Program-made: the position numbers and the translations under genes
Virus record (IMG/VR): IMGVR_UViG_2565956711_000006
Span: 1 to 31,175 of that record
Source: a virus
Lineage: Duplodnaviria; Heunggongvirae; Uroviricota; Caudoviricetes
DNA length: 31,175 bases
Strand: one strand, 5' to 3'
In this document: positions 1 through 29,266 of the stretch, piece after piece
Layout: the number at the start of each line of letters is the position of its first letter
Numbering within the stretch: the stretch's first letter is position 1
Notes under the pieces: model-generated
Told to the model about the DNA's origin: nothing
What the model saw: the letters and a program-made list of their open reading frames with translations, nothing else
The model's database searches: none

Positions 1-648
1 ATGGAAACAATCATCACCGTTATCGCCGCTGTTGCTGGGATCGCTTTTTGGGTTGGGCTAATCAATCCCAAATGGGTTTTTATGCCAAATCGAAAGCGCT
101 CATCTGCTATATACTTCGGGGTGTGCCTCTTGGCAGCAATCATAGGTTCAATGGTTGCACCAGTCGCGCCGAAAGCTGTTGCTGAAAATAAACCCCAGCC
201 AGCAGTGACAAACACAGAACAAACACAACCCGCGGCTAAACCCAAAGAACAATTAACAACCACTATCGACTTTTCAGAAGCGACTAATCAACTTCCCCTT
301 GCCTTATCCAAGGCGCTCGGAGATCTGAATCTCACAGTTAAACCAGTCATTTACAACAAAGCCTTAGTAGTTGCATTCAATTTTGACAGCATAGAAGAAC
401 TACAGGCGAAAAGTGCCGTTCAGTCCGTATGCATCAGCTATTTCAATCACGGGGAATCTAACAGGGCTTGGAAGGCTGGTTTATTCGATCATATTTATGT
501 GACTAACGACATTTTAACCAAAGGCTACGTTTTTCAGGGCGGTGAATCTTCGTGTGATATCTGGGGCAAAAAGGCCGGGGATAGTGGCGATCAATATTTA
601 AGTGAAAACCTTACACGATCAAGGTTTGTAGCCATAAACATGAAATAA
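1..648 (+). CDS. hypothetical membrane-anchored protein (two N-terminal hydrophobic helices, Pro/Gln/Thr-rich linker, C-terminal globular domain)
   Basis: ORF from ATG at position 1 to TAA 646-648; hydrophobic segments IITVIAAVAGIAFWVGL and IYFGVCLLAAIIGSMVA; no family recognised; visibly more AT-rich than adjacent phage genes; 5' end may be cut by the window edge. Confidence 0.5.
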   Translation: METIITVIAAVAGIAFWVGLINPKWVFMPNRKRSSAIYFGVCLLAAIIGSMVAPVAPKAVAENKPQPAVTNTEQTQPAAKPKEQLTTTIDFSEATNQLPLALSKALGDLNLTVKPVIYNKALVVAFNFDSIEELQAKSAVQSVCISYFNHGESNRAWKAGLFDHIYVTNDILTKGYVFQGGESSCDIWGKKAGDSGDQYLSENLTRSRFVAINMK

Positions 649-678: not shown

Positions 679-917
679 AATGCCAGCGATAACTGATCTT
701 CGCCGTGGTGACTTCTTGGAAAAGCTTCTTGTGGCACCATCGCGCCGGGCGCTGGCTGGGTCTGGTTTAGTGAACCGTCTATTTCCGTCATGCTGGTGAA
801 ACAGTACCCGCACAACATATTTTGACACTGGTGATAGCTGCGCCGCACAAGCAAACTCAGCTCAACACTGGTTCTGGTTTTTGCTATTGCACGGCAGCGA
901 GGACAGCGCATTGCCAT
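675..917 (-). CDS. ogr: late-gene transcriptional activator, Ogr/Delta zinc-finger family
   Basis: 80-aa product MAMRCPRCRAIAKTRTSV...YHQCQNMLCGYCF with C-X2-C-X22-C-X4-C spacing as in P2 Ogr (recalled); AGGAGG 7 nt upstream of ATG at 917; lies directly downstream of D as in P2. Confidence 0.8.
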   Translation of the reverse strand: MAMRCPRCRAIAKTRTSVELSLLVRRSYHQCQNMLCGYCFTSMTEIDGSLNQTQPAPGAMVPQEAFPRSHHGEDQLSLAL

Positions 918-21664: not shown

Positions 21665-22714
21665 TTGAGCGGCAAAAAAAAATTCAGGGCGCCAACTGCT
21701 GCGCCAGCCAGCACGGCCAGCAACGCAGCCACCCCGCTGGAAAGCGTGGAATCTTTCAGCTTTGGCGACCCGATCGCAGTCAACGATCGCGCGTCTCTTA
21801 TGGAGTGCCTCGAATGCCATAACAATGGCCGCTGGTATGAACCACCGATCAGCCCCTACGGGCTGGCGCGCATGTTCGACGTTGCCGCCTATCACCAGTC
21901 ACCGCTGATATTTAAACGCAATGTTATCGCCAGTTGCTACATACCGCACCCGCTGTTGACCCGGCAGGAGTTCACCGCCTGGGTGCAGGATTATTTAATT
22001 TTCGGTAACTGTTACATGGAATGCCGCCGCAACCGACTCGGCCAGCCGATCGAGCTGCGGCACAGCCAGGCAAAATATACGCGGCGCGGCATAGACCCGG
22101 CGCAATTCTGGTTTGTTCCGCGCTACGTTGACGATCACGCGTTCGAACCGGGCAGCGTCTGCCAGATCAAGAACCCCAGCCCGCACCAGGAGATCTACGG
22201 TGCGCCGGAATATCTGGCCGCGCTACAAAGCGCCATGCTGAACGGTGAAGCAACGGTGTTCCGCCGCAACTACTACATTAACGGCAGTCATGCGGGTGTG
22301 ATCGTCTACCTCACTGACCCGGTGGCGAATAATAACGATGTGGAAAAGCTTAAGAAGTCGCTGAAAGATGCACGCGGCAACGGTGCTTTTAAAAACCTGT
22401 TTGTCTACGCGGCGGGCGGGAAAAAAGACGGCCTGCAAATTATGCCGTTCAGCCAGGTGGCGGCGAAGGATGAGTTTACCGGCATCAAAGACGCCACCCG
22501 CGACGACCTGTTAGCCGCGCACCGCGTGCCGCCCGTTCTGATGGGGGTAATGCCGAATAACTCCGGTGGCTTCGGCGACGTAGAGAAAGCGGCGAAGGTG
22601 TTTTCCATCAACGAACTGGCCCCGATACAAGAAAGCCTGAAAGAGTTAAACGACTGGCTGGGGATCGACGTGGTGCGCTTCAACCCTTACGCACTGTTGC
22701 AGGCAGCAATCTGA
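21665..22714 (+). CDS. Q: portal protein gpQ
   Basis: 349 aa; starts at TTG 21665 directly after the terminase TAA, with SD GGAGGAG 8 nt upstream. Confidence 0.88.
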   Translation: MSGKKKFRAPTAAPASTASNAATPLESVESFSFGDPIAVNDRASLMECLECHNNGRWYEPPISPYGLARMFDVAAYHQSPLIFKRNVIASCYIPHPLLTRQEFTAWVQDYLIFGNCYMECRRNRLGQPIELRHSQAKYTRRGIDPAQFWFVPRYVDDHAFEPGSVCQIKNPSPHQEIYGAPEYLAALQSAMLNGEATVFRRNYYINGSHAGVIVYLTDPVANNNDVEKLKKSLKDARGNGAFKNLFVYAAGGKKDGLQIMPFSQVAAKDEFTGIKDATRDDLLAAHRVPPVLMGVMPNNSGGFGDVEKAAKVFSINELAPIQESLKELNDWLGIDVVRFNPYALLQAAI

Positions 22715-22924: not shown

Positions 22925-22943
22925 CTCATTCCCCCGCCTCGCC
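22925..22943. other. candidate cos (cohesive end) site
   Basis: The minus strand reads GGCGAGGCGGGGGAATGAGC; the first 12 nt match my recollection of the P2 19-nt cohesive end (GGCGAGGCGGGGAAAGCAC); lies just past the Q 3' end as in P2. Confidence 0.5.
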
Positions 22944-23092
22944 CGCACGCAGAAACCCCGCTTTTTTGTGCAAATGTGCAGACCAGCGGAAGGCCCGCCC
23001 CGTCTGGTCTGCTCCTGAAAAATCACCATCATAAAATTTGTGCGGTTTTGCGCGAAATTTTGCACTGATTTTCAGCACTCCCGCAAAGCCAT

Positions 23093-23809
23093 TCACTGGC
23101 CTGCGTTAACCATGGCGGCGCGGCAGGCGTTCCATCCAATTTTTTGCTGAACGGTGCCGAATTGGCACAGCATTGCAGCGACCGCCATGAATGAGCCGAA
23201 CTCGTAATAGTTTGCCGGATCATTTCCCTGGTAATGACCCCCAACATGTTCAGCCCACTGCCCAAGTGTCCAGTTGAAGCGTTCGCTATGTTGCTCGTCC
23301 GGCAGCGATACCGGCGCTGGCTCAGTTTTCCAGCCGTGATACCACATAAATGCACAGTAAGCGGCAACATCCCGGGGGTCTCCCTTAGCTATATGCTGTT
23401 GAAAGTCTGCCTGGCATTGGCTTGGCCAACCATCTTGTTTCCAGTCCGCGTCATAGCCATATTTTAATTGAGCCTTGTACAACTTCTCAGCCAGGGCGGA
23501 GCTGAAGTCGGTCACCAGTTTCAGCGTATCAGGATGAAGCTCTGCCGGAACTACCGGCGCTGGCGTGGCGGAGTATAGCGGGGCGATATTTCTTTCCAGA
23601 TCGGTAATTACGCTCCATACAGGAATAGATTCAACACCCTGCTTAGCCATATCGCGGTAACTGTCTGCATAGGCCAGCACGGGATTTCGCCCTGACTCCT
23701 CCGCTTCGAGCGATGCCAGCGCGATACGCGCCAGCTCCTCCACCTCATCAAAGTTATATCCGCCGCCTGCTGCAATTTTTGCTGCGCGTTCTCTGGTAAT
23801 TTTGCTCAT
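23093..23809 (-). CDS. hypothetical protein, 238 aa, downstream of replication gene A
   Basis: Start at ATG 23809 (MSKITRERAAK...) with SD AGGAG; no family recognised; last gene before cos. Confidence 0.6.
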   Translation of the reverse strand: MSKITRERAAKIAAGGGYNFDEVEELARIALASLEAEESGRNPVLAYADSYRDMAKQGVESIPVWSVITDLERNIAPLYSATPAPVVPAELHPDTLKLVTDFSSALAEKLYKAQLKYGYDADWKQDGWPSQCQADFQQHIAKGDPRDVAAYCAFMWYHGWKTEPAPVSLPDEQHSERFNWTLGQWAEHVGGHYQGNDPANYYEFGSFMAVAAMLCQFGTVQQKIGWNACRAAMVNAGQ

Positions 23810-23861
23810 GCTGTCACTCCTGTTTCTTCTGAAAATGAATAAGCGAAGCCCCGGCACGCTG

Positions 23862-26219
23862 TTATGACGCACCGTTAAAGGCTTTTTTCATTCGGTTAAT
23901 AAGACTATTTGTCTGTTGCTTCGCCGCCATCACCTGCGACGGCAGCTTATCCAGCCCCGACGCGGCGCGGTTGCGCGATACCAGCCGCCCATCCTGCACT
24001 GTCATAACAAGATCGCCGCACGCCACTGACGCACCGGCCATCATCGATCTGACCATTCCGGCGCTGGCATCAATCCCACGCAGCGCCAGCAGTTCACTGA
24101 TCTGCTGCTCTTTCACGGATATCCCGGCCCCGTCTTCCCGTTCCGGTGGCCGTTTTTTCCGCTTACTTCGCACATCGTCACTTAGCCTCTGTGCCAGTTC
24201 CCGCTTTTCCTGCCGTGAAAGAGCATCAAAATTCACCGTCTCGCCCACTTCGTGATCGGCATGTTCAAGACCGTCAGCACCTGTCGCGGGATCCCGCGTA
24301 CAGTTATTGACAGAACTCCGAGGGGCGGCGTTGCCGCCTGAAAAACCAACGTCAACGGCCACACCGTCAGCGCTCTGGCGCTTCGGCACGATTTTGTATT
24401 GAGTGGTGCGGGTGAAGATCAAAGAGTCATTGCCCGTAATCGGGCAGTAAATACCAGTGATTCGCTGGACGTTATCGCCGTAGGCGTTGCCGTTTTCAGT
24501 GGTTTCATAATTCAGACGGATGCGCAGCTTATCGCGCTCAACCAACGGGCCACCCTGGGCTAATACGTAGTTATCCCATTCGCCACCGTTAGCGGCCTGC
24601 CGGGCGGTTTCCAGTTCAGGGTGTAACACCAGTTCGCGATCGCCCAAGCGGCGAAGTTCGCGATATACCGTGACCGGCGCACCGCCGATCTGCTGAAACT
24701 GACGAATAGCCCAGCGCGATGCCCACGCGCTAACGCGGAGTGACATTTCTTTCAGGTCTTCCCCGGTTTCGTCGTCCTTCTCACCATCCAGCGCGAAGCC
24801 GTCGATATTCTTCGAAATGTATTTCGCTATGTAGCCAGTTGCGCTGCCGTGGGCATCGTCGATCGGCACGACCTGAAAGCGGTTTTCCTGCGCTCCCGGT
24901 TCGTTGCCGTCTTCTTTCAGGGCATATTTACGGAAGATTTCGCGCGCCTGCTCGACGCATTCCGGGCGCATAAAAAGAAGCAAATGCCAGTGTGGCGTTG
25001 CATCGTGGTGCGGTTCGACCACGCGGAAACCAAAGACGCGGATCCCTTTTCTCTTCCATGCGGCGCGGGTTCTCGCCCAGACTTTGCAAAGATATTGCTG
25101 TGTCTCACGCGGCGACGCGCCACAGTATTTGTTATTACGGCGCCCGTTATGCTGCATAGCGTGATAGCGGGAAGGCGCTGTCAGCGTGTAGAAGTCACCG
25201 GCCAGCCCTTCCAGCTTCGCCAGATCTTCAAATCCGCGCATTCTCGTCATGAGTTCGCGGCGACGGTTGGCCGGATTGGCAACACTGCCGGCGACTTTAT
25301 CGATCAGCGAAATGCGCTCGCCCGTGTCCTGGTCTTCCAGTTCCATAGCCTTGAGGTATTCACGGTTAGCTTTTTTCTGGGCCAGCCATTCCGTAAGGCA
25401 CGGGGCGCTACTGTATGGGGAGGATTTTTTCTGGACGTATCCCGCTGCGATCATCAAATGCTCACGCCACCGGGCATGGATACGGCGCAGGCGGTTTAAC
25501 CACCACTGCGGTGACTCAAGACGGAGAACTGCGCGTAACGCGTCCTCCGCTTCAAGTTCTTCATTGCAATAAGCTGTCCAACCGGGGATCGGCGTTTTCA
25601 GATGCACTGCCAGCGATGCAATACGGCCATAGCCAGAAAGCGCCGCGAACTCAGGATCGCCGGTGCGCACCAACTGGTGATCGGACTCGCGTATAAACTC
25701 GCTCGTAAAGATATCGGCAAGCGTATAAGCCAGTCTTTTTAACTCTTTTTTCCCTGCCCAGAGCATACGGAAAAGCTGATCGCGAATTGGCAGCAGAATG
25801 CCGGGCATCACAGTATCAGGCTGGTAAACACTGTTCACGCTATCAATACGCGTTAATACGTGGCGCTCAAAGGTGTTAAGCAGCCAGTGATCTGCCGCTT
25901 TGCGGTCTTTCACATCCAGCGCATCAAGCTTCGCTGCAAAGTGGCGGCGGACATATTGCGGAAGAGAAGCCAGACGGCGACGCAGCAGCTTACTGCGTTC
26001 CGGCTTTTCGTCCTCCGCTACCAGTTCACTGAACGCAATATGCTTACGCGTGCCGTCCGGCATGAGATAGTCGAAACCATCCAGCCCCGGCGCTACATCA
26101 ACGCCAATCGGCTGGTATGATTTGTTCCCGCCATAAGCGTAAGGGATAGCATTGTCAGTGCTACCCGGATACGGTGGAGGTGGAGAAGGGGCGCGACGGC
26201 CACGGGTTGCCGTGGTCAT
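23862..26219 (-). CDS. A: replication initiation protein gpA (rolling-circle nicking endonuclease)
   Basis: 785 aa; contains ATPHWHLLLF (HUH-type) and GYIAKYISKN (catalytic Tyr) motifs typical of P2 A family. Confidence 0.92.
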   Translation of the reverse strand: MTTATRGRRAPSPPPPYPGSTDNAIPYAYGGNKSYQPIGVDVAPGLDGFDYLMPDGTRKHIAFSELVAEDEKPERSKLLRRRLASLPQYVRRHFAAKLDALDVKDRKAADHWLLNTFERHVLTRIDSVNSVYQPDTVMPGILLPIRDQLFRMLWAGKKELKRLAYTLADIFTSEFIRESDHQLVRTGDPEFAALSGYGRIASLAVHLKTPIPGWTAYCNEELEAEDALRAVLRLESPQWWLNRLRRIHARWREHLMIAAGYVQKKSSPYSSAPCLTEWLAQKKANREYLKAMELEDQDTGERISLIDKVAGSVANPANRRRELMTRMRGFEDLAKLEGLAGDFYTLTAPSRYHAMQHNGRRNNKYCGASPRETQQYLCKVWARTRAAWKRKGIRVFGFRVVEPHHDATPHWHLLLFMRPECVEQAREIFRKYALKEDGNEPGAQENRFQVVPIDDAHGSATGYIAKYISKNIDGFALDGEKDDETGEDLKEMSLRVSAWASRWAIRQFQQIGGAPVTVYRELRRLGDRELVLHPELETARQAANGGEWDNYVLAQGGPLVERDKLRIRLNYETTENGNAYGDNVQRITGIYCPITGNDSLIFTRTTQYKIVPKRQSADGVAVDVGFSGGNAAPRSSVNNCTRDPATGADGLEHADHEVGETVNFDALSRQEKRELAQRLSDDVRSKRKKRPPEREDGAGISVKEQQISELLALRGIDASAGMVRSMMAGASVACGDLVMTVQDGRLVSRNRAASGLDKLPSQVMAAKQQTNSLINRMKKAFNGAS

Positions 26220-26395: not shown

Positions 26396-27366
26396 TAAAA
26401 CGCCTCCATATCGTCAAACGTGCCTGCCGCAACCATCGCGTTGTAAGTCGCATCACCCATCACGGCGCCACAATCAGGGCAACCGCCGCCGTAACGCCCG
26501 CAGCAGTCGCAGACAGGCAGCACGCCGATCACTTCTTTGGCCTTCTGGCGGTTGTCTTTGTCAGTGCTGACGGAACGTTGCACGCTGATTTCGTGCATCT
26601 TGAAAGGCTGATAAATCGCGCGGGTGGCTTCGGTGTCGCTGTTGGAAATGACAACCTTCACGCCATGCTTACGGTTAACTTCCAGCAGTGCCTGGACTAA
26701 CTGGCGGTGGTTGTCTTCCGTGAATGGTTCGGTGTGGTATTGGGTAAAATCGGCTGTTTTGCTTTCAGGCAGGTAAGGCGGATCGCAGTAAACGAGAACA
26801 TCGCCACCCGTGACGACCTGTAGAGAACGCTGGAACGGCGCGCAAAGAAATATTGCCTTTGTATCGTTGGCCTTTTCGGCAAACAGGCGGATTTCATTTT
26901 CAGGAAAGTAGACGCTCTTATACTTGCCAAACGGCACGTTAAAGCCGGTCTTACGGCTGTAACGGCATAAGCCGTTATAACCGTGGCGGTTCAGATACAG
27001 GAATTGAGCAGCACGCATGATGCGCGCCATTTCGACGCCATAACGCAACCCACAGCTTTTTACCGTACATACCTGCTTATTGAACGCGGCGCGGACTTCG
27101 TTGTACCCCTGCGGGCTGTTCTTGCTGTTGAACAGTTCGCGGGCCGCATCGATCACTAAGTCCGGGTAACGGGTGACTTTCCGATAAAGGTTAATAAGAT
27201 CCGGGTTGATATCAGCCAGCACATAGCGGCGGTACTCAGTCGCCAGAAATACCGATGCGCCGCCTACGAACGGTTCGATCAGGCAGTCGGCTTTAGGAAG
27301 GTGCGGCAGCAGGTCAGGAAGGACACGGGTTTTACCCCCTGCCCATTTGATGAACGGGCGGATCAT
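26395..27366 (-). CDS. dam: DNA adenine methyltransferase (Dam family) with Cys-rich C-terminal extension
   Basis: MIRPFIKWAGGK N-terminus, FVGGASV AdoMet motif, DPPY catalytic motif; extra C-terminal about 45 aa with CDCCGRYGGGCPDC. Confidence 0.85.
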   Translation of the reverse strand: MIRPFIKWAGGKTRVLPDLLPHLPKADCLIEPFVGGASVFLATEYRRYVLADINPDLINLYRKVTRYPDLVIDAARELFNSKNSPQGYNEVRAAFNKQVCTVKSCGLRYGVEMARIMRAAQFLYLNRHGYNGLCRYSRKTGFNVPFGKYKSVYFPENEIRLFAEKANDTKAIFLCAPFQRSLQVVTGGDVLVYCDPPYLPESKTADFTQYHTEPFTEDNHRQLVQALLEVNRKHGVKVVISNSDTEATRAIYQPFKMHEISVQRSVSTDKDNRQKAKEVIGVLPVCDCCGRYGGGCPDCGAVMGDATYNAMVAAGTFDDMEAF

Positions 27367-27622: not shown

Positions 27623-27805
27623 TTACTGGTGATCCGCTGATTGGTTAGCTGACTTGAGGGCAGGCCAGACAAGGAGAAGAAGAGCGCCAACGAAGAAGGC
27701 GTCGCCAATCACCGAAAGCAGGTAGCTGGTGAAATCCACTGCTACGACCATGAAGGCCAACAGCAGGGCCAGCGCCGGACGTAGTGAATCCAGCACGCGC
27801 AGCAT
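27623..27805 (-). CDS. small hydrophobic protein with two predicted TM helices (60 aa)
   Basis: MLRVLDSLRPALALLLAFMVVAVDFTSYLLSVIGDAFFVGALLLLVWPAL; ATG overlaps the TerB-like stop (TGATG). Confidence 0.55.
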   Translation of the reverse strand: MLRVLDSLRPALALLLAFMVVAVDFTSYLLSVIGDAFFVGALLLLVWPALKSANQSADHQ

Positions 27806-28239
27806 CAGAGATAATCCTCAACACGCAGCCCCAGACGGCGCCCGACCTCTTCCAGCACCTTCTGTTCTTCTGGTTCGATCTGGCCGTCCGCTTCGGCGAT
27901 AGTCAGCATGTTGACGAAGACTTCTTCGGCTTCTTTCGGATCGTTTTTGATGTCGTCGATTTCGCGCAAAATGTTCATGCGGCCAACGCGGAAGCCAGCT
28001 TCAAGCTGTTCCGTATAGCGGTTGATGGTGGATGTAATTTCATTGCCGAAATGCGCAAGGCGCGGGTTAGAGCGGATAAGCTGATCCAGCTTGCTGGTTT
28101 CTTCTTTTTCGATCTCGCCATCGGCGGCAGATACCAAAAGACAACCGCCGACAATAGCTTCCATAAGATCGCGATTTTCCACTTTCTTAAGTTCAACTTT
28201 TGCCGCTGCTACTTTTTTTCCAAACAGTTTATTAAACAT
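27805..28239 (-). CDS. TerB-like domain protein
   Basis: Start at ATG 28239 (MFNKLFGKK..); two repeats of the TerB-type helical motif (..GGCLLVSAADGEIEKEE.. and ..TIAEADGQIEPEEQKVL..) resembling remembered TerB; the plus-strand antisense ORF 27784..28257 is low-complexity. Confidence 0.65.
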   Translation of the reverse strand: MFNKLFGKKVAAAKVELKKVENRDLMEAIVGGCLLVSAADGEIEKEETSKLDQLIRSNPRLAHFGNEITSTINRYTEQLEAGFRVGRMNILREIDDIKNDPKEAEEVFVNMLTIAEADGQIEPEEQKVLEEVGRRLGLRVEDYL

Positions 28240-28984: not shown

Positions 28985-29266
28985 TCAAAGACCGATCCAC
29001 AGCAACCAAGCGTCGCGCTGCTCTCTCGGACGGTTGTAGTAGGCGTCACGCATTGCGCGGTTGAACTCAGGAATATAGATCCAGTTCTCAGCACGGGCGC
29101 CCAGGCTGTCCGGGTTCTTCCACGGGATGATCGGCAACTTACCGTCTTCAATCATGCTCTTAACCGTGGCGGGCTTCTTACCGATTAACTCGGCAAATTT
29201 AGGGTATGGAACCGCGTCAACGGCATGACGCACTTCAATGAACCCCTCTAACTCTTTGTCTGTCAT
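28985..29266 (-). CDS. cox: Cox/Apl-type excisionase and early-promoter regulator
   Basis: Start at ATG 29266 (MTDKELEGF..) with SD GAGAGGTGA; ..VPYPKFAELIGKKPATVKSMIEDGKLPII..RDAWLLWIGL resembles remembered P2 Cox. Confidence 0.72.
   Translation of the reverse strand: MTDKELEGFIEVRHAVDAVPYPKFAELIGKKPATVKSMIEDGKLPIIPWKNPDSLGARAENWIYIPEFNRAMRDAYYNRPREQRDAWLLWIGL

Follow-up and report, generated by a model that had tools for sequence, protein, structure and literature searches.

The early accessory genes of lambdoid phages belong to the PL operon (ea genes) and the PR operon (nin genes), both of the early expression class. Location in a hotspot is widely used to predict anti-phage function, and the slot between gpA and gpQ of P2-like phages is a documented hotspot (PMC9122126; Rousset et al. 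2022). Among the described proteins, the closest to the subject of this study are lambda Ea22, which has been called pro-lysogenic and whose solved C-terminal domain is a mixed alpha-beta dimer (PMC10834534), and the dATP/dGTP diphosphohydrolase of the Acinetobacter phage SH-Ab 15497, a characterised enzyme with a DUF5664 domain; DUF5664 by itself hydrolyses dATP, dUTP and dGTP to the deoxynucleoside monophosphate (dNMP) and PPi (PMC12884076). Here we describe a gene for a 238-amino acid (aa) protein that lies in this slot in the virus record IMGVR_UViG_2565956711_000006, whose 31,175 nucleotides (nt) were analysed at full length and are called the window below. The window comprises an entire P2-like prophage (Cox, Fil, gpA, and capsid and tail genes of P2 type) inserted between fieF and cpxP, and matches Escherichia coli strain EC09 with 100% identity. 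The account that we put forward, tentatively and as one with a little less than an even chance of being right as a whole, is that of a captured ea-type early accessory gene that would be expressed early in the lytic cycle and whose conserved core, related to DUF5664, would act on nucleotides. The gene adds to a known, functionally uncharacterised family a new member in an unusual genomic context; it is not a new kind of system. The gene and the parts of its product are as follows.

23093..23809, minus strand: coding sequence (CDS) of the 238-aa mosaic ea-type accessory protein, stop codon at 23093-23095 (open reading frame (ORF) list and translation; homologues; PHROG matches).
23699..23809, minus strand: module 1, aa 1-37, N-terminal helices ending in ELARIALASLEAE (alignment breakpoints; PHROGs 660 and 3323; AlphaFold2 (AF2) predicted local distance difference test (pLDDT) 70-77).
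23558..23698, minus strand: module 2, aa 38-84, a swappable internal cassette (alignment with the sister allele L004).
23312..23557, minus strand: conserved core, aa 85-166, a predicted three-helix bundle and candidate distant relative of DUF5664 (PF18909) (conservation; AF2).
23096..23311, minus strand: module 4, aa 167-238, a rare C-terminal module ending in the junction motif W-N-A-C-R-A-A-M.
23307..23737, minus strand: block of 431 nt that is 100% identical to an ea-region gene of the P22-like contig L007 (blastn).

The frame of 238 codons runs uninterrupted from an ATG at 23809, its product reading MSKITRERAAK...GWNACRAAMVNAGQ, and the longest ORF in the same frame begins with a GTG at 23872 that overlaps A. 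A search of 5.8 billion proteins returned 2760 homologues at E<=1e-5, and a 99%-identity cluster among them has 43 member sequences. Judged by these homologues, by the in-frame module swap in a sister allele and by the end-point 'ACRAAM' that is shared with relatives, the frame is a real gene and not a chance ORF. The sequence-only reading, a first inspection of the DNA without database searches, had recognised no motif in the product, which holds for Pfam, NCBIfam and PADLOC, where the whole protein found no match (in Pfam and PADLOC even at E<=1), but not for PHROGs, where matches reach 1e-45 to 1e-47: two families of unknown function, 16519 (E 2.3e-47) and 4838 (E 2.1e-45), match aa 70-166, and PHROGs 60, 660, 5117, 3323 and 11500 match other parts of the protein.

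As the end-points of the homologue alignments cluster at aa 38, 74-85 and 162-175, the protein is modular, and the junction motifs ELARIALASLEAE, PAPVVPAELHPDT and W-x-ACRAAM, which separate the modules, recur across the family. The product would be an all-helical 'beads-on-a-string' protein with two exchangeable N-terminal modules, a three-helix core of ~80 aa and a rare C-terminal module, and the junction motifs are the sites where relatives have recombined. The motif that closes module 1 is common to lambdoid EaA and hypothetical proteins, and this module contains exact matches of 36-39 nt to genes of mEp043 and mEp213 annotated as EaA protein or hypothetical. Module 2 is 80-85% identical in unrelated Klebsiella phage proteins. 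The C-terminal module, shared by no more than about 10 of the 238 collected homologues, gave no candidates as a lone query. In relatives, additional domains follow the ACRAAM motif or flank the core, among them DUF551 (PF04448), DUF550 (PF04447), Ead_Ea22 (PF13935), DUF3850/ASCH, WDGH and Lar. Many members stop directly after ACRAAM, like the 238-aa protein; one of these (P0031), encoded on a non-P2 contig with another gene directly following, ends in ACRAAMVDAGQ. Remnants of DUF551 were sought downstream of the stop codon of the 238-aa gene and none was convincing.

The closest relatives of the gene are found in lambdoid phages. The identity over 431 nt with the P22-like contig points to recent recombination, and aa 23-168 are identical to a protein (P0010) encoded in a P22-like ea region after cIII, kil and anti-RecBCD, among Ead_Ea22 genes and before int. 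A second ea-region protein (P0007), whose gene adjoins P22 Eai and Ead-like genes, carries the core together with the rare C-terminal module, and the protein of the phage collection that matches best over the full length is encoded in the nin region of a Klebsiella lambdoid phage, with genes annotated 'Ead domain protein' and 'Eaa1' as neighbours. On three further P2-like prophage contigs the slot of the 238-aa gene is occupied by an allele of 220 aa in which aa 38-84 are replaced in-frame by an unrelated shorter segment while the flanks are 99.3-99.5% identical. Since these relatives are located in ea and nin regions, the 431-nt block is identical, the sister allele shows a swap and the gene is rare among P2-like loci (counts below), the gene is by these comparisons a recent import from the lambdoid early accessory (ea/nin) pool into the P2 slot, where it is still recombining.

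The surroundings of the gene in the P2 slot are the following.

23112..23831, no strand: exchangeable cassette, over which homology is lost against the methylase-carrying sister prophages L002, L003 and L009 (blastn).
23810..23861, minus strand: spacer of 52 nt between the stop codon of A and the ATG, its first ~30 nt common to relatives with other cargo.
23817..23821, minus strand: Shine-Dalgarno sequence AGGAG with a 7-nt spacer to the ATG (read from the sequence).
23862..26219, minus strand: replication endonuclease gene A, 785 aa, the upstream neighbour in the same operon orientation (ORF; annotation and PF05840 in relatives).
About 22925..22943, no strand: cos cohesive-end sequence (SEN4/SEN5 record ends).
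21665..22714, plus strand: portal gene (homologue of gpQ), bordering the hotspot on its other side (ORF list; annotation in relatives).

When the linear records of Salmonella phages SEN4 and SEN5 are aligned to the window, both of their ends fall at 22943|22944, where the minus-strand sequence, GGCGAGGCGGGGGAATGAG, resembles the P2 cos overhang. With the cohesive end mapped to about 22925-22943, and with the stop codon of the gene ~150 nt from cos, the 238-aa gene is the last gene before cos. The coordinates of A, the spacer and cos thus agree with the earlier description of a gene co-oriented with A, 52 bp downstream of it and last before cos, and also with its placing at the P2 tin/old accessory locus, as the gene lies between A and the portal gene and adjoins cos. 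Of the extent 23093-23861 assigned to it, the lower end is correct and the upper end is not, the CDS stopping at 23809 and the remainder being the 52-nt spacer. Between the stop codon and cos there is a strong GC-rich hairpin of 9 bp (GCAGACCAG...CTGGTCTGC) at 22978-23012 that has no U-run on the strand of the gene (fold z-score of the region -2.6); it falls in the flank common to dam-carrying relatives and is a candidate terminator or packaging/cos element.

For comparison of the slot we surveyed 80 loci encoding relatives of A, one genome per species, in 58 of which the portal gene was within reach. The interval from A to the portal gene measured 688-5474 bp in these 58 loci against 1147 bp in the window, and its larger ORFs (n=131) matched a wide range of families, which include IetA/IetAS, type II methyltransferases (12 ORFs), PDC-M11, ATPase-Toprim, retron-type reverse transcriptase, AbiC, GmrSD, KAP NTPase, a dCTP-deaminase-like protein, HEPN and HicB. 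The variable hotspot supposed in the sequence-only reading is therefore borne out by intervals of very different cargo, and the survey of 58 relatives reproduces the gpA-gpQ hotspot of PMC9122126. Two sister prophages of E. coli have, instead of the 238-aa gene, one for a DNA adenine methylase, accompanied or not by a small ORF. The cos-side junction of this exchange lies inside the CDS (23093-23111 in the window, 3394-3412 in L002/L003), the last 5-6 codons, V(N/D)AGQ-stop, being common to the ea-type gene and the unrelated dam cargo. The 238-aa gene itself was found at this locus in 3 of 5426 complete E. coli genomes, and its core domain in none of the 80 P2-like loci from other species; by this distribution it is non-core cargo.

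Every annotated gene from cox (about 28985-29266) via fil, TerB, DUF3927, a broken dam and A to the 238-aa gene is on the minus strand. A consensus scan detected neither a sigma-70 promoter nor a canonical intrinsic terminator in the 52-nt spacer or the 3' end of A, its sole promoter-like match being inside the 238-aa gene, and the hairpin of 8 bp into which the spacer folds has no U-run next to it. Because no promoter or terminator was found there, we infer read-through from A, which would make the gene the last cistron of the early lytic operon; the product would then act in lytic development or induction and not in the resting lysogen. The same operon holds two further observations. Upstream of A, the gene for a DNA adenine methylase is in fragments (26410-26514 and 26587-27366, minus strand; a pseudogene in EC09), and at this position the sister prophages L004-L006 carry an intact 323-aa MethyltransfD12 gene. 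The genes for a TerB-domain protein and DUF3927 (27623-28239, minus strand), between fil and dam, are present in L005 and absent from L004 and L006, which makes their position a second small variable site in the early operon.

The most conserved part of the protein is its core, for which no Pfam model exists. A query with aa 81-172 against 1.84 billion cluster representatives yielded 1954 proteins at E<=1e-3, of which 1525 had E<=1e-10, so that the family comprises at least 1954 representatives of 50%-identity clusters. In about 200 core sequences K109, K116-Y117-G118, W123, W128, C132, H139, K142-G143-D144-P145, D147-V148, Y151-C152, W156 and H158 are invariant or nearly so, and all invariant positions are intact in the 238-aa protein. 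The invariance of C132, H139, C152 and H158 among close relatives had raised the idea of a Cys/His zinc site, which was rejected as the remote homologues of CcrBL9 and SAP012 are without C132 or H139. The AF2 model of the core, built on 95 sequences, is a confident three-helix bundle (pLDDT 87, predicted template modelling score (pTM) 0.72). Foldseek found nothing in the PDB for this model, and profile searches of the PDB with the full-length, core and DUF5664 alignments gave chance-level matches only; the fold search of BFVD gave weak matches to dATP/dGTP diphosphohydrolases, including the SH-Ab protein. The core is also encoded in coliphage-type genomes of ~90-115 kb (EP_H11, IME392, phiT5282EW and others), in Stephanstirmvirinae (phi1_175008), in phiCbK-like jumbo phages (CcrBL9, CcrSC), in Casjensviridae and in a cyanophage. 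Several of these groups are strictly virulent, and since they keep the core it must serve the infecting phage, and a role confined to the lysogen is disfavoured.

The link of the core to nucleotide enzymes begins with its neighbourhood. In many relatives it stands immediately N-terminal to a DUF550 dATP/dGTP pyrophosphohydrolase domain; in one of them (P0048) the alignment to aa 76 onwards begins at residue 74 and DUF550 follows at 174-268. The SH-Ab 15497 enzyme (385 aa) has DUF5664 at 3-98 and DUF550 at 170-244, and as both domains lie directly upstream of DUF550, the core stands where DUF5664 stands in that enzyme. When the whole SH-Ab protein was compared with HMMER and hhalign, the core aligned to its DUF5664 part, with KYGydadW...HIaKGD of the core against KYGRSNW...HIAqieKGE of SH-Ab. 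A search with the SH-Ab DUF5664 domain gave one match, and a DUF5664 profile was built from 12 phage records (13 sequences); against this profile the core scored a hhalign Prob of 21% (P 1.1e-3), which rose to 37% (P 3.6e-4, 47-66 co-linear columns) after addition of seven remote phage core homologues. Reciprocal matches between the core and DUF5664 hidden Markov models (HMMs) were co-linear, with best E-values of 1.9e-5 and 1.6e-4, and the top real score, 14.5 bits, exceeded the highest score among 2600 shuffled sequences, 8.9 bits. The best-scoring DUF5664 members were those of SH-Ab 15497, which is fused to DUF550, and PMBT28, both encoded beside purZ.

The motifs common to the two are KYG..(N/D)W, (R/Q)H(I) and G(E/D)xxD. 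Among the conserved positions of DUF5664 (G31, K34, Y35, N39, W40, G43, R55, H56, G63, D67, G71 and H74 in SH-Ab numbering), the K-Y pair, W, H, G and D, with an acidic residue next to the G, have their counterparts in K116, Y117, W123, H139, G143, D147 and D144 of the core; R55 is mostly Q in the core, and the G71/H74 loop has no counterpart. Two further gene contexts were observed: in the Caulobacter jumbo phage CcrBL9 the core is fused to an HD_4 (Rel/SpoT-type) phosphohydrolase domain beside a deoxyribonucleotidase gene (L106 1955-2755), and in the Vibrio phage GR7B it is encoded immediately upstream of a MazG gene (L109 1252-2783). That the core or the C-terminal module is a degenerate DUF550 was also considered and rejected, hhalign against a DUF550 alignment giving a Prob of <1%. 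We regard homology of the core to DUF5664, as read from these alignments, as somewhat probable, and retention of catalytic activity as less probable than the homology. In this account the core would be a divergent, shortened relative of the DUF5664 (PF18909) deoxynucleoside triphosphate (dNTP) pyrophosphohydrolases. It would bind a nucleotide, such as a dNTP or one that is non-canonical or serves in signalling, and might also hydrolyse it, and in this way it would prepare the nucleotide pool for replication of the phage or weaken a host defence that relies on nucleotides.

Several points weigh against the account of a captured early gene with a nucleotide-acting core. No Pfam model, PF18909 included, matches the protein at E<=1, and a hhalign Prob of 37% does not reach any threshold in accepted use. 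Compared with DUF5664, the core lacks the ESGxxHxxH segment and keeps only two residues, D144 and D147, of a cluster of four acidic ones, so catalysis may be lost, and the DUF550 or HD partner domain of relatives is not in the 238-aa protein. The full-length AF2 model is poor (pLDDT 54), and the packing of the modules is for that reason not readable from it. A weak promoter may lie inside the 3' end of A, the expression as part of the operon being a prediction. The hotspot location is a prior that favours defence, the slots of relatives carrying IetAS, AbiC, GmrSD and others.

The alternative that survives best, doubtful as it is, is a prophage-encoded single-gene anti-phage defence or superinfection exclusion in the tin/old slot, possibly acting through depletion or alteration of nucleotides. 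In addition to the location, the gene is rare and variable, a nucleotide-hydrolase-like core would suit a depletion-type defence, and in a 2026 preprint protection was seen for six of eight loci of unknown function from the P4 hotspot, and 15-32% of P2 proteins of unknown function received an antiviral score (10.64898/2026.02.27.708500). Against this, PADLOC-DB 2.0 returned 0 families at E<=1, no promoter of its own was detected for the gene, which stands at the end of the early lytic operon, and the protein is small and helical without a recognised effector. The family is native to lambdoid early lytic accessory regions and also occurs in the virulent phage groups. Methylases of the slot protect the phage's own DNA from restriction, and as they too are carried there, the slot is not purely a defence locus. 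The anti-phage cargo proposed in the sequence-only reading had been drawn from location alone and is not supported: neither a PADLOC match nor an own promoter was detected, the family is present in early lytic regions, and no result of this analysis indicates an anti-phage role.

It is less likely still that the core is a new, shortened catalytic variant of the DUF5664/MazG type that stands alone and acts in phage-host conflict, a reading we consider improbable. Such a variant could break down, on behalf of the phage, a nucleotide that stems from a defence (a chain terminator or a signalling nucleotide) or, alternatively, could deplete dNTPs as a one-gene defence in the P2 hotspot. The EExxE...ExxD motif, by which MazG-type enzymes bind metal, is not in the core, which has only the DxxD pair (D144, D147) and a single semi-conserved E108.

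That the gene is non-functional debris of recombination, a chimeric pseudogene left by cargo exchange, is quite unlikely. PGAP/RefSeq marks 23285-23809 of the window as a pseudogene, 'incomplete, missing C-terminus', the 3' junction of the cassette falls within the last 5-6 codons that are common to the dam cargo of relatives, the DUF550 or DUF551 of many relatives is missing, and the same prophage has the broken dam upstream of A and a truncated ogr. However, the frame of 238 codons is unbroken and has a good ribosome-binding site, the invariant core residues are all intact, the module swap of the sister allele is in-frame and a 99%-identity cluster comprises 43 sequences. The whole C-terminal module occurs in the P22-like ea-region gene (P0007), and ends after ACRAAM are natural in many members, for example in P0031 in its non-P2 context. 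As many relatives stop after this motif, P0031 included, the pseudogene label is probably an artefact of comparison with longer relatives.

Least probable, and very unlikely, is a developmental modulator like Ea22, whose oligomerising N-terminal helices would make protein-protein contacts and bias the choice between lysis and lysogeny or induction, since the 238-aa protein is without a PF13935 match (Pfam, E<=1), its conserved element is the core and not a coiled coil, P2-type phages use a different (C/Cox) switch, and the core also occurs in the virulent phage groups, which have no lysogeny decision. What speaks for it is the N-terminal junction motif shared with lambdoid genes annotated as EaA protein or hypothetical, the Ead_Ea22 genes that adjoin relatives, some of which carry PF13935 themselves, and a mosaic of N-terminus, helical region and variable C-terminus that fits the Ea22 variants described in PMC10834534.

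Two observations concern the far edge of the window. The ogr/Delta-like zinc-finger late activator is a 27-codon fragment annotated 'missing C-terminus' (837-917, minus strand), and if it is really truncated the prophage may fail at late-gene activation. Beside it, at the prophage edge on the fieF side, an ORF of 215 aa (1-648, plus strand) matched nothing in Pfam or PADLOC and is a possible further cargo position.

The account of a captured early gene has consequences for the reading of hotspots, as the cos-proximal slot of P2 can also capture early accessory genes of unrelated lambdoid phages; one block of the slot (431 nt) being 100% identical to a lambdoid ea gene, guilt by location can mislead. 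If the core is a relative of DUF5664, part of the unexplained ea/nin content of lambdoid phages would be tied to manipulation of the nucleotide pool, and if the stand-alone conflict enzyme were true, much of this ea/nin 'dark matter' would consist of nucleotide-directed conflict genes. The comparison provides a testable lead for a large domain family without a Pfam model, present in thousands of phage proteins and often directly before DUF550.

Placed beside the known systems, the gene shares with P2 tin and old, and with other cos-proximal cargo, the gpA-gpQ slot beside cos, its non-essential nature and its variability between relatives, but nothing in the sequence or domains of the 238-aa protein relates it to Old-type ATPase-Toprim proteins or to a PADLOC model. 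Expression of P2 tin and old moreover takes place in the lysogen, whereas the 238-aa gene apparently forms the tail of the early lytic operon. The core is similar to DUF5664 in size and helical nature and shares with it the position before DUF550, co-linear motifs and weak reciprocal HMM and hhalign matches, but it is missed by the Pfam model and lacks the ESGxxHxxH loop as well as half of the acidic cluster. Lambda Ea22 is likewise an early, mosaic and largely helical accessory protein with a variable C-terminal domain, and relatives of the 238-aa gene neighbour Ead/Ea22-like genes; its C-terminal domain is mixed alpha-beta (PMC10834534), in contrast to the three-helix bundle predicted for the core. 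The Ead/Ea22-like class is located in the exo-xis/ea region of lambdoid phages, which does not apply to the P2-borne copy but does to P0010 and P0007, both in ea regions. The lambdoid mosaic early proteins as a whole (EaA, Eaa1, Ead/Ea22-like and DUF551/DUF550 proteins; PHROGs 16519, 4838 and 60) differ from the 238-aa protein in that its gene sits in the gpA-cos hotspot of a P2-like phage and is without DUF551, DUF550 and Ead_Ea22, and they share with it the core, the junction motifs, the mosaicism and the early-operon position, the predicted expression class of the gene being that of its ea and nin relatives in the lambdoid PL and PR operons.

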